A stretch of DNA of 64,000 nucleotides from Muribaculaceae bacterium (GCA_022509085.1 JAFLTW010000002.1:54455-118454), one strand, 5' to 3'. Positions 48,772 through 51,523 are shown, counted from the first letter of the stretch. A program made the numbers and translations. Notes: generated by a model not told the origin, from the sequence alone.

Positions 48772-49847
48772 ACCTCCATCAGCAGTCGGCAGGTTTCCTT
48801 TATGTCATGTTTTCTCAACGCGGGGTGGATATCACTCCTCGGAGACAGCTCTGTCTGCGCAATCTTCTGCGCCCATTCCTTAGCAGGAACGTCGAGCGGG
48901 ATGTAGCGTATCAAGGGGGTGAGGTCGGTTTCGCGCGGCACAGCCGTTGAGGCCACTACGGGGAGACCTGCGGCCTGGGCCTCGATAGCCACGATGCCGA
49001 AGCCTTCGTAGAGCGAGGGGAAGAGGAGCAGGTCAAAGGCCTGCATCAGGTCGCTCACATCGCTGCGGCTCCCAAGGAAGAGGGCGTGCGGGGCGAGGCC
49101 CTCGTCGATGACGCGCCGCTCTATTTCCTGCTTGAGCTCACCGTCGCCGGCAAATACCATGACGGTGTCGGGGCGCAACTTCACCAGTTCCCGCAATACG
49201 TCGATCATGAAGCCGTGGTTTTTCGCCTTGCGGAAGGCGGCTACGCTGCCTACGGTGAATGCCTTCTCGAGGCAGAGCTGCCGGCGCACCCGGTCGCGGG
49301 TCTCGGGGTTGAAACGGAAGCTGTCGAGGTCGATGCCGTTGTTCACCACGCGGGCCTCCTTCCTGGCACGCGTGCCCTTGAAACCCCAGTCGAGGGCGCC
49401 CTCCGAGCAACCGAGGTAGTGGGTAGCAATGCCGGCTATGCGTGCACGGTTGAGGCGATGTAGGAGGCGGTTGTGCAGTCCGGCGGTCGAGACGTTGTGG
49501 GAATGGGCGATGCGGACCGGTATACCGTATTTGCGTGCGTATACCAGGGGCATGATTCCCGTGAAACTGTTGCCGTTGAAGTGCACGGCGTCATAGCGGT
49601 GGGCGTTGGCCTTGAAGAAAGCGTCGAGCGAACGGATATGGGCTTTCCAGCCCTGCTTACGCGGGATGAAGGAATGTATTTGGGCCCCCAGAGCCATGGC
49701 TTCCTGCTCCACGTCGGAGCCGGTGCGTTCTTCGACGAGGAAGTCAAACTGCACCTCTTTCGGGTCCATATTACGGATGGCGTTGAGCATAAAAGCCTCC
49801 GTCCCGTTACGGCGGAGTCCCCCTGTGATCATCAGCACTCTCTTCAT
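48726..49847 (-). CDS. GT4 glycosyltransferase (EpsF/CapH-like)
   Basis: MKRVLMI..GLRRNGTE, RIAHSH, KNHGF, FPSLYEGF..VAIEAQAAG; -7 box TAACTTTG at 49860-53. Confidence 0.9.
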   Translation of the reverse strand: MKRVLMITGGLRRNGTEAFMLNAIRNMDPKEVQFDFLVEERTGSDVEQEAMALGAQIHSFIPRKQGWKAHIRSLDAFFKANAHRYDAVHFNGNSFTGIMPLVYARKYGIPVRIAHSHNVSTAGLHNRLLHRLNRARIAGIATHYLGCSEGALDWGFKGTRARKEARVVNNGIDLDSFRFNPETRDRVRRQLCLEKAFTVGSVAAFRKAKNHGFMIDVLRELVKLRPDTVMVFAGDGELKQEIERRVIDEGLAPHALFLGSRSDVSDLMQAFDLLLFPSLYEGFGIVAIEAQAAGLPVVASTAVPRETDLTPLIRYIPLDVPAKEWAQKIAQTELSPRSDIHPALRKHDIKETCRLLMEVYSSGASKPRSDSTT

Positions 49848-49942
49848 CCCCGCAAAGTTAATAAAATAAATCGACATTCCCACCTCCCACGCTGGTGGGC
49901 CTCCCGCCACCGTGCCTCGCCGCGCCGGTTCTCGACGCCGGT

Positions 49943-50007
49943 TCATGCTTCTTCATGATAAATCATGATAAATCATGTTAAATCATGCTTCATCCTGCTC
50001 CCTCATG
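49943..50007. repeat. Seven TC(A/C)TG units at exact 10-bp period
   Basis: Units at 49943, 49953, 49963, 49973, 49983, 49993, 50003. Confidence 0.9.
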
Positions 50008-50017
50008 CCCCAGAGGG

Positions 50018-50767
50018 CTAATTGAGAGGCCTGGTTCCCGTGCATTTAGGATAGTCGCTGCAACCCCAGAATTCGCGGCCTTGGTTCTGTCCGCGCTTTT
50101 GCATCCTCTTTAGCATCGGTTTGCCGCATATCGGACATTGCGGGCATCCTTCGGCCTGGGATTGCGCAGCGCGGGCCTCAAGTCGTTCCTGGGTCATGTT
50201 TTCAGAGAAACCCCCTGTCTGCTTAAAGCTTTCAAGCTGACTCTCAAGTTGTGATTGCAGCATCTTATTCTCTTTCAAAAGCAGTAAGAGCAGCGCGTTG
50301 GCTACAATTTCCGGATTTTCATTTTCCAGCCATTGGCTAAATTTATCTTTCTGGGCGAGAATGTGCTTGGCTGCATCATGAAGATAGCTGTTGGAATACT
50401 GTGGCCGATCAAGATTAATGTGCCATATCGCCTCCCTGTCCGGATTCCCGATTGCCCATGCGTCGGCCCTACGACGAAGCAGGAAATTGAAAAAATCGCC
50501 CTGCAACTCATCGAAACTTGCTCGGGCAACGTCCAAAAGCTTCAGCTCCGTCTCTATCGAGGTAGAATGGCGTGCTGACCCCTCGGCGATGTTTGCCACG
50601 CCACACCGCGCTGCCATAACCATCTGATCGTAAAGCCGGCGTCCCGGATCCATTTTATAGTCGACAAAGCGCTCGCAAAAGTCTTGGGTGGCCAGTTGGA
50701 TAATATTTGCCAGCACCCAGGAATCCAGATAGAAATAAGACTGAGAGAATTGTATCTTAACGCCCAT
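50018..50767 (-). CDS. Four-helix-bundle protein (TIGR02436-like) + suffix domain (TIGR04258-like) + topoisomerase-type C4 zinc finger
   Basis: DQMVMAARCGVANIAEG...ETELKLLDVARASFDEL; ANALL...Q......F...GGF.E.M...R; CPICGKPM...FWGCSDYPKC. Confidence 0.9.
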   Translation of the reverse strand: MGVKIQFSQSYFYLDSWVLANIIQLATQDFCERFVDYKMDPGRRLYDQMVMAARCGVANIAEGSARHSTSIETELKLLDVARASFDELQGDFFNFLLRRRADAWAIGNPDREAIWHINLDRPQYSNSYLHDAAKHILAQKDKFSQWLENENPEIVANALLLLLLKENKMLQSQLESQLESFKQTGGFSENMTQERLEARAAQSQAEGCPQCPICGKPMLKRMQKRGQNQGREFWGCSDYPKCTGTRPLN

Positions 50768-50778
50768 AATAATTCCAT

Positions 50779-50808
50779 TAGTAAAGTATAGTAATGTATA
50801 GTAAAGTA
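50779..50808. repeat. 3 x 10-bp TAGTAA(A/T)GTA in the 5' leader of the four-helix-bundle gene
   Basis: tagtaaagta tagtaatgta tagtaaagta. Confidence 0.9.
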
Positions 50809-50836
50809 TTAGCTAGCTTAGGAAGTGGCTTTTCAG

Positions 50837-50844
50837 CAAAATTA
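50837..50844 (-). promoter_or_regulatory. -7 box of the four-helix-bundle gene
   Basis: TAATTTTG on minus strand. Confidence 0.65.
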
Positions 50845-50860
50845 GCAAATTTTGTTATAA

Positions 50861-50952
50861 GAATCATGGTTAATCATGATAATCCATGATCAATCATGAT
50901 CAATCATGCCAATTCCCGCTTACCTTATCATGCTTCATCCTGATATTTCATC
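50861..50952. repeat. Five CATG units at 10-bp period plus a degenerate second block
   Basis: CATG at 50865, 50875, 50885, 50895, 50905; TCATG/TCCTG/TCATC at 50928, 50938, 50948. Confidence 0.9.
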
Positions 50953-51060
50953 CTCTTCGATTCTGCCTCCTCATGCTGCATCCTCCCGCGATGTTCAGCT
51001 CGTTATTTCCAACAATCTAAAAAGTTCGATTGGTCCACGGAGCGGCGCCGTGCCGTCTTG

Positions 51061-51429
51061 TCAGTGGGCGGAGCGGGTGGAAAGCTTCTTGCCGTCGCGG
51101 CTCCAGGTGTAGATCCAGCTGCCGGAACGTGAGGTGAAGGTGTCGCCGGCTACGCCGATGACTTCGCCGACGGAGCTGCGAGACAGGGTGCAGTATTTGC
51201 GGCCGTCGGAATCCCAAAGGTAAACCCAGCTGCCGTTTTCGCTTACAAAGAACGTGGAGCTATAGCCCTTCACCGTACCTACCGATGAGGCGGAGAGGGT
51301 CTTGTATTTCTTTCCCTGGGCGTTGTACATGTAGACCCAGCTTCCTGCAGGCTCTACCTGCGATATCACTTCGGCGAAGGCGCAAGCCGCTATCATCACC
51401 ATCGCCAAACTCAATATTATACGTTTCAT
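51061..51429 (-). CDS. Small secreted protein with 37-aa internal repeats
   Basis: Signal peptide; GSW(V/I)Y...GKK...(L/R)S x3; -7 box at 51480-73. Confidence 0.8.
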   Translation of the reverse strand: MKRIILSLAMVMIAACAFAEVISQVEPAGSWVYMYNAQGKKYKTLSASSVGTVKGYSSTFFVSENGSWVYLWDSDGRKYCTLSRSSVGEVIGVAGDTFTSRSGSWIYTWSRDGKKLSTRSAH

Positions 51430-51523
51430 TTTCTTTCCTCTAATTTATTCCTATGCGTCATTCTAATTGATGCAAAGTTAATAAAAATCCCGGATATGAG
51501 AGGGGGGTGAGCCGGGAGCGGGA

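Follow-up and report, generated by a model that had tools for sequence, protein, structure and literature searches.

A gene for a four-helix-bundle protein with a zinc ribbon and the short-period tandem arrays that flank it are, as judged from sequence comparison, inherited and moved as one unit of ~1 kb. The gene lies in a 64,000-nucleotide stretch of the genome of a Muribaculaceae bacterium (GCA_022509085.1 JAFLTW010000002.1:54455-118454; this whole stretch is called the window, and positions are counted from its first letter), and we refer to the gene together with its arrays as the cassette. Comparison with relatives further indicates that the type of array follows the clade of the protein rather than the host. 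Our interpretation, tentative and with something close to an even chance of being right, is that the cassette is a gene module that relocates and carries, in its arrays, the binding sites of the protein it encodes.

The cassette had been picked out in an earlier reading of the window made from the sequence alone (the sequence-only reading). The open reading frame (ORF), the arrays, a 16-bp direct repeat, and the dip in GC content that it described were all recovered at the same positions, and the arrays and the repeat were far beyond chance expectation. The parts of the cassette are as follows.

49943..50012, minus strand: 3' array, GGGGCATGAGGGAGCAGGATGAAGCATGATTTAACATGATTTATCATGATTTATCATGAAGAAGCATGA on the gene strand, ~6 nt past the stop codon; on this side the shared unit ends at ~49953
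49982..49997, no strand assigned: first copy of the 16-mer ATCATGCTTCATCCTG, within a longer direct repeat that links the two arrays
50018..50767, minus strand: ORF of 249 aa, a four-helix bundle with an NIAEG motif, a TIGR04258 suffix, and a C4 Topo-type zinc ribbon
50768..50836, minus strand: 5' leader, holding a third 10-bp array
50837..50844, minus strand: predicted Bacteroidetes-type -7 box TAATTTTG (TAnnTTTG), read by eye
50862..50908, minus strand: core of the 5' array, of the CATGATTGAT type on the gene strand and in the same orientation as the 3' array
50909..50975, minus strand: outer 5' array, degenerate and G-rich, including the second copy of the 16-mer (50927-50942)

The 3' array is made of seven TC(A/C)TG units with an exact 10-bp period (49943-50007) and the core of the 5' array of five CATG units with the same exact period (50865-50908), each unit in the window holding a short palindrome (GAT-AA-ATC / ATC-AT-GAT). 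A run of four CATG at period 10 is found at four positions in the window, each of them at the cassette, compared to 0.00 in 100 shuffles. The 16-mer is exact at 49982 and 50927, where 0.05 matches would be expected even allowing two mismatches. The GC content falls from ~0.60 in the surrounding DNA to 0.42-0.52 over the cassette, which is flanked by a 122-aa gene and a GT4 gene. The third tandem array, in the leader, is absent from the sequence-only account; it consists of 3.1 copies of the 10-bp unit TAGTAAAGTA (50779-50809) between the predicted -7 box and the start codon, and this unit is unrelated to the CATG arrays.

Gene and arrays were found together in unrelated surroundings, which supports the earlier proposal that they form a single unit. 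At a locus in a close strain (L097; L numbers denote loci in other genomes or metagenome contigs, and C numbers the contigs of the source genome, G000, which has 36 contigs and 2.41 Mb), a 97%-identical protein is encoded next to a WYL protein and a 951-aa protein, a context unrelated to that in the window. The homology is limited to positions 49953-50970 of the window, a 1,020-bp alignment with 92.5% identity that contains both arrays, the promoter, and the ORF. The ends of the unit fade inside array-like sequence with no target duplication, and beyond 50970, where the alignment ends, a weaker array-like similarity (GGAGGAT) persists slightly outward. An 89%-identical protein in a third context shares just the ORF and the 3' array. 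Across the family, an all-versus-all nucleotide comparison gave a conserved unit consisting of the ORF plus 50-110 nt downstream, and usually no more than 20 nt upstream. Same-genus genomes match the gene alone and never the window neighbours, exact look-ups of the neighbour proteins gave no match or led back to the filled contig itself, and the flanks of L097 are absent from the source genome.

There was no fixed synteny, in line with the mobile cassette suggested earlier. We surveyed the neighbours at 60 loci (60 upstream and 57 downstream proteins, 117 in all) and found them to be unrelated, with 99 Pfam families upstream and 74 downstream, ranging over rpsL, RuvX, MetH, HsdS, and HsdR. Among these neighbours one DDE transposase (1 of the 57 downstream) was the sole protein of recombinase type, and there was no integrase among the families listed. 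The statement that no transposase or integrase is present in the window holds within ~4 kb of the cassette, where none was found; the rest of the window was not scanned for recombinases. We rejected an insertion sequence or an integron cassette, as there is no consistent transposase or integrase near the loci and the ends are fuzzy array sequence without duplication. Carriage by phage was rejected as well: a viral collection contained no homolog and no GATTAATC array.

The relocation could be that of a selfish cassette of the intervening sequence (IVS) type, with the arrays as structural arms (for hairpins, RNA processing, or recombination and slippage), a protein that does not read them, and arrays that lack a gene as scars or non-autonomous copies. 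The unit moves whole and is found at unrelated sites, including beside housekeeping genes (rpsL, RuvX, and MetH), and decaying copies are present in relatives (L094 and L095). The arms of the subfamily are direct repeats in 16 of 21 loci, so deletion by ordinary recombination is possible; it would leave a solo array, and one gene-less array in the source genome (C1:320542) is similar to the G-rich margin of the arrays in the cassette. There is also a precedent: the S23p IVS in the 23S rRNA of Coxiella burnetii carries an ORF of the same four-helix-bundle family, is regarded as selfish, and has tandem heptamers directly before the ORF in a copy number that varies between strains (PMC4990558). 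The cassette arrays fold into long hairpins, with z-scores of -2 to -5, as structural arms would. However, the gene is under purifying selection, single copy, and at a fixed site within species, unlike an active parasite, and neither an enzyme nor a target duplication was found at the loci examined. The one distant empty site has no scar, the minimum-free-energy fold of the 1000-nt cassette pairs each array locally and not the 5' arm with the 3' arm, and scars should decay, yet the cores are retained in every unit. We consider a selfish cassette of this kind unlikely.

Short tandem arrays accompany most members of the family. We used 84 intact homologs (80 loci from species-representative genomes, plus those from same-genus genomes; mostly Muribaculaceae) and searched up to 250 nt upstream and up to 200 nt downstream of each. 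An array was present on at least one flank of 63 (75%). Arrays were found 3' of 49 homologs, and 41 of these begin no more than 25 nt past the stop codon. With a stricter detector, the background was just 9 other arrays in ~520 kb of flanking DNA. The number of units per array has a median of 6-7 and a range of 3-18, with no preference for multiples of five, and array lengths differ between strains by whole 10-bp units.

The source genome has three family members, including the window gene. A test of the flanks of paralogs had been proposed, and both other paralogs, like the sampled relatives, also have short-period flanking arrays. The unit is different at each of the three genes.

Window gene: array unit ATCATGATAA, period 10
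C2:16265-16810: paralog of 182 aa without the ribbon, in a type I restriction-modification operon; array unit CCTTAAAAA, period 9
C32:51272-51823: paralog (par3) of 183 aa without the ribbon; array unit AGCTAWNNT, period 9, on both sides

The type of array tracked the protein clade. On the protein tree the array class changes 31 times, compared to a mean of 49.3 when classes were shuffled, and 0 of 200 shuffles gave a number as low. The TCGA period-8 class belongs almost wholly to one clade with a support of 100, and the TCGAG period-9 class mostly to two clades (starred on the protein tree). Three protein clades are present in the genus of the window, each with the array class of its own clade. 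Homologs of the C32 paralog in three other species (86%, 71%, and 71% identity), all in unrelated contexts, have AGCTA period-9 flanks, giving four species with this pairing when the source genome is included. A more distant homolog in Prevotella nigrescens (45% identity) has CTAGG period-9 units downstream.

The differences between clades bear on two features that the sequence-only reading had taken as general. The commonest unit across species is GATTAATCNN, which follows the scheme GAT-WW-ATC-NN. The units in the window, ATCATGAT/GATAAATC, follow the same scheme with NN = AT, and CATG is therefore mostly the filling used by one clade; the conserved core is GAT..ATC. Other clades use TCGAGNNNN (TCGAG type, period 9) or TCGAATNN (TCGA type, period 8, directly before the ATG), and GATAAATCAT versus TAGCTATAA are examples of cognate versus non-cognate unit types. 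Since the periods of the clades are 8, 9, or 10, an arrangement of one site per helical turn is not general.

The pattern of conservation within the units fits selection on each unit as a symmetric site, in duplex DNA or in a hairpin. In period-10 arrays the half-sites GAT and ATC are retained in every unit and the spacer varies, with the linking dinucleotide mostly TA and the central dinucleotide taking 9 of the 16 possibilities, and there is no strand bias. We disfavour a linear single-strand (TRAP-like) motif because the half-sites and dinucleotides are constrained without any strand bias.

The arrays could instead act in the transcript, as 3'-end or leader hairpins that stabilise or terminate the mRNA or are cut by RNase III, with the protein binding RNA as a toroidal oligomer. 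At all 49 loci with a 3' array, the array follows the stop codon with no terminator in between, and only 2 of the 49 have a canonical terminator beyond the array; the 3' array is therefore transcribed and is the 3'-end structure. At some loci the 5' array occupies the interval from the upstream gene's stop codon to the ATG, and the variation in period from 8 to 10 would be compatible with a role in RNA. RNase III is known to excise relatives of the family from rRNA (PMC4990558). The lack of strand bias, on the other hand, is not what is expected of a linear RNA motif, the 5' array in the window is upstream of the predicted promoter, and no long-range stem is predicted. Rfam gave no rRNA or other match to positions 49500-51500 of the window, and the Gut-1 RNA motif (RF01706) had no match at E ≤ 1 in the window region and eight related loci. 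We think it very unlikely that action in the transcript is the main function of the arrays.

Arrays without a gene are much commoner than those with one, and the arrays are thus not private to the cassette. The source genome has gene-less CATG period-10 arrays at C12:31052-31172, C15:7518-7594, C1:320542-320605, and C33:10060-10103. Relative to unrelated genes, gene-less arrays are located right after the stop codon, right before the start codon, or immediately upstream of a TAnnTTTG promoter. Metagenome contigs were scanned for exact matches to three GATTAATC units at period 10, which gave 120 loci (L117-L236), mostly unrelated eukaryote-type repeats; ~30 of the 120 look like gut Bacteroidales, and in one of these the gene is beside the array. 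Given this excess of gene-less arrays, the repeats form a dispersed family, with the gene lying among them. AGCTA period-9 arrays, with the unit of the C32 paralog, are also scattered over the source genome, at least eight in number (C32:25686-131632, C2:41186, and C34:69643), and one of them, at C32:56758, is 116 bp long. Plant-associated and coral contigs matched the scan through CGATTAATCG runs, apparently the ends of small repeats, and are unrelated to the bacterial arrays.

Such a distribution could mean that the arrays belong to the host as dispersed repeats (elements of the promoter-upstream, 3'-end, or nucleoid type), bound by another factor or by none, beside which the gene lands or persists. 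The numbers and positions of the gene-less arrays are as this explanation would have them. Comparable intergenic tandem repeats of 7-9 nt, with variable unit number, are dispersed in Xanthomonas and Nostoc (Rehm et al. 2015, PMC4692102), where they share these positional preferences, lying no more than ~50 bp from stop or start codons. However, the array type tracks the protein clade and not the host genus, paralogs within one genome have different units, and the arrays travel with the gene. Among same-genus genomes, CATG-type arrays were found in ~6 of the 12 that carry the gene and in 1 of the 12 that lack it, a weak count in which the genomes are not independent. Based on these findings, we believe a purely host-level repeat to be quite unlikely.

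The protein is functional and under strong purifying selection, as indicated by ratios of nonsynonymous to synonymous substitution (dN/dS) of 0.075, 0.060, and 0.040 against three relatives. Its matches to TIGR04258 (4helix_suffix; 51.2 bits, E 8.3e-14, residues 152-200) and PF01396 (Zn_ribbon_Top1; 35.2 bits, E 1e-8) are above the cut-offs of 40 and 32 bits, and homologs are annotated at the source as 'four helix bundle suffix domain-containing protein'. The matches to PF05635 (21.4 bits) and TIGR02436 (22.5 bits) are weak and below the curated cut-offs of 33.8 and 24; some close homologs carry a precomputed PF05635 match. A profile of 52 homologs matched the solved four-helix-bundle protein 2gsc over the NIAEG helix (E 4.6e-4). 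We take the protein, from these profile comparisons, to be a divergent relative of the PF05635/TIGR02436 (S23p) family and not a clean member. The same 52 sequences have a mean column identity of 75%, with C211, C214, C236, and C242 of the ribbon invariant and the NIAEG motif invariant too. An AlphaFold2 monomer model (pLDDT 84.6) has long helices at residues 15-34, 44-65, 71-98, and 152-184, a disordered linker, and a three-strand ribbon. Foldseek placed 2gsc first (probability 1.0, target TM-score 0.65, E 0.016), followed by 2rld; there was no match at E ≤ 0.001, and support for the fold is therefore moderate. The ribbon weakly resembles GRF/Topo zinc fingers, which bind single strands. No defence-system model in PADLOC matched.

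We favour, tentatively as stated above, a module in which the protein reads its own arrays. The module, ~1 kb in length, would consist of a direct-repeat array, its own promoter, the gene for the four-helix-bundle/suffix/zinc-ribbon protein, and a second array, and would belong to the family of 23S rRNA intervening-sequence proteins. The arrays would be tandem binding sites that a symmetric oligomer recognises in the form of duplex DNA or hairpins; a homopentamer was reported for a Xanthomonas protein of the four-helix-bundle family (cited in PMC4990558). Binding at its own flanks may lead to autoregulation, since the 5' array borders the -33 region of the predicted Bacteroidetes-type promoter and its last unit occupies the place where that region is expected. 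Gene-less arrays of the same repeat family would be further targets. Relocation would be rare and is most likely due to host recombination within array sequence, because the ends are fuzzy, no recombinase was found, and the arms are direct repeats; an enzyme encoded by the element is unlikely. A broader proposal, that suffix proteins and perhaps the whole 23S-IVS/Avd-like family are sequence-specific readers of tandem repeats with clade-matched, palindrome-cored units of 8-10 bp, with the gene riding along with its sites and the gene-less arrays serving as targets, seems to us possible but doubtful.

Several findings weigh against the idea of a relocating module that reads its arrays. The gene was at a fixed site in all 23 and all 24 contigs of two well-sampled species, and no excision or insertion by recombination between the arrays, as envisaged in the sequence-only reading, was seen. 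Within species, neither an empty site nor a circle was found (no search of sequencing reads for circles was made). That reading had also suggested looking for an empty site that retains one array or 16-mer. There was no filled and empty pair among close relatives, and the sole empty orthologous site (L014 versus C31:62984-63042 of the source genome, at a genus-level distance) is a 60-nt spacer with no remnant of an array, which may reflect either gain in the L014 lineage or loss in the source genome. Gene-less arrays outnumber gene-linked arrays ~30:1 in gut-type metagenome contigs, and one same-genus genome has CATG-type arrays without the gene. The position of the 3' array, between the stop codon and any terminator, means that it is transcribed and could act in RNA, and the long hairpins formed by arrays are likewise compatible with such action. 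The bundle and the ribbon show high conservation even between clades with different cores, and this fits poorly with sequence-specific reading. Clades with different units are separated by about three columns (positions 161, 177, and 228), and we did not call a specificity code because the independent contrasts at these positions are too few. Clade-specific arrays could also result from co-inheritance alone. For these reasons a structural or RNA-level role for the arrays, with a protein that does not read them, is a possible alternative to the module that we favour.

The closest systems in print are the ORF-bearing IVSs of 23S rRNA (Coxiella, Leptospira, Brucella, and Xanthomonas type). The statement that no element of this architecture has been described was thus nearly right; the Coxiella IVS, with heptamers before an ORF of the same family, is the qualification (PMC4990558). 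Like the cassette, these IVSs are small inserts without a recombinase and have short tandem repeats before the ORF in a strain-variable number, which in the cassette changes by whole 10-bp units. In contrast to them, the cassette lies between protein-coding genes and not in a 23S rRNA helix, and its arms are direct, with no stem of complementary termini. As it has neither the rRNA location nor the complementary stem, we rejected the identification of the cassette as an ORF-bearing 23S rRNA IVS. Its units of 8-10 bp have palindromic cores, unlike the Coxiella heptamers, and its protein, which includes a suffix domain and a zinc ribbon, is strongly selected, unlike the decaying Coxiella ORF.

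Avd, the accessory protein of diversity-generating retroelements, belongs to a related four-helix-bundle fold family and works with nucleic acid. The cassette protein differs from Avd in having a suffix domain and a zinc ribbon. No reverse transcriptase was present in the 4-kb flanks of the cassette (template and variable repeats were not searched for) or among the families listed for the 117 neighbour proteins at the 60 loci. Tandem units of 7-11 bp near the gene of a cooperatively binding protein are found in ParR-parC, the heptads of the omega repressor, and the metboxes of MetJ, and binders of the ParR, omega, and MetJ type are ribbon-helix-helix dimers. These iteron- or centromere-like arrays are our working model for the proposed binding in the cassette; the cassette is not a partition or plasmid system.

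The dispersed heptamer repeats of Xanthomonas and Nostoc are G-rich and have been explained as quadruplex-forming, and they are not linked to any four-helix-bundle gene (PMC4692102). They resemble the gene-less arrays described here in position, whereas the units of the cassette are AT-rich palindromes. Similar short tandem repeats have been described in other cyanobacteria. In the literature on the suffix domain, the family models, and the repeat units, we found nothing that describes an association of gene and array.

The four-helix-bundle family is an orphan family with thousands of members, and the paralog family alone has more than 5,600 clusters. If the protein does read the repeats, a large orphan family would gain a function, the intervening sequences of rRNA, whose origin is a decades-old question, would be linked with the unexplained short tandem repeats in bacterial intergenic DNA, and a class of dispersed intergenic tandem repeats in abundant gut bacteria would be accounted for. 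The clade-specific pairing of protein and repeat makes the proposed function directly testable. For annotation, such genes in capsule, restriction-modification, and ribosomal-protein loci would be passengers and not members of the pathway. The present work contributes a zinc-ribbon subfamily with palindrome-cored direct arms and a test, made across species, of whether units are clade-specific; it also documents two sites that share a near-identical unit, the fixation of the site within species, and the excess of gene-less arrays.

Some of the loci have further features. In the source genome, the ribbon-less C2 paralog follows an HsdM-like gene in a type I restriction-modification operon (C2:11767-16850), and at another locus (L043) a zinc-ribbon gene adjoins the orthologous HsdR; different family members therefore fill a similar slot in different species. 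Upstream of rpsL in the source genome, outside the window, there is a period-12 array of four GTACCCAATAAA units with a duplicated GAGTTCTGCGATTRAT (C35:47950-48100), and a zinc-ribbon cassette adjoins rpsL in three other species (L012, L057, and L113), which suggests that elements of this kind repeatedly settle in the spacer ahead of the S12 operon. One homolog of the C32 paralog has a Bacteroidales-1 (6S-type) RNA (RF01693, 127.7 bits; L238:1146-1332) ~170 nt upstream. The region C12:25015-31172 of the source genome contains a 490-aa ORF, capsid-like by eye, with an 11-unit ATCATGATAA array directly upstream; TTATAAG-type period-9 and period-10 arrays lie 6 kb from this ORF, and no four-helix-bundle gene was found there. 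Directly past the stop codon of the 122-aa gene in the window, and outside the shared cassette, a GC-rich palindrome, ACGGAGCGGCGCCGTGCCGT (51037-51056), may be the 3' hairpin of that gene.

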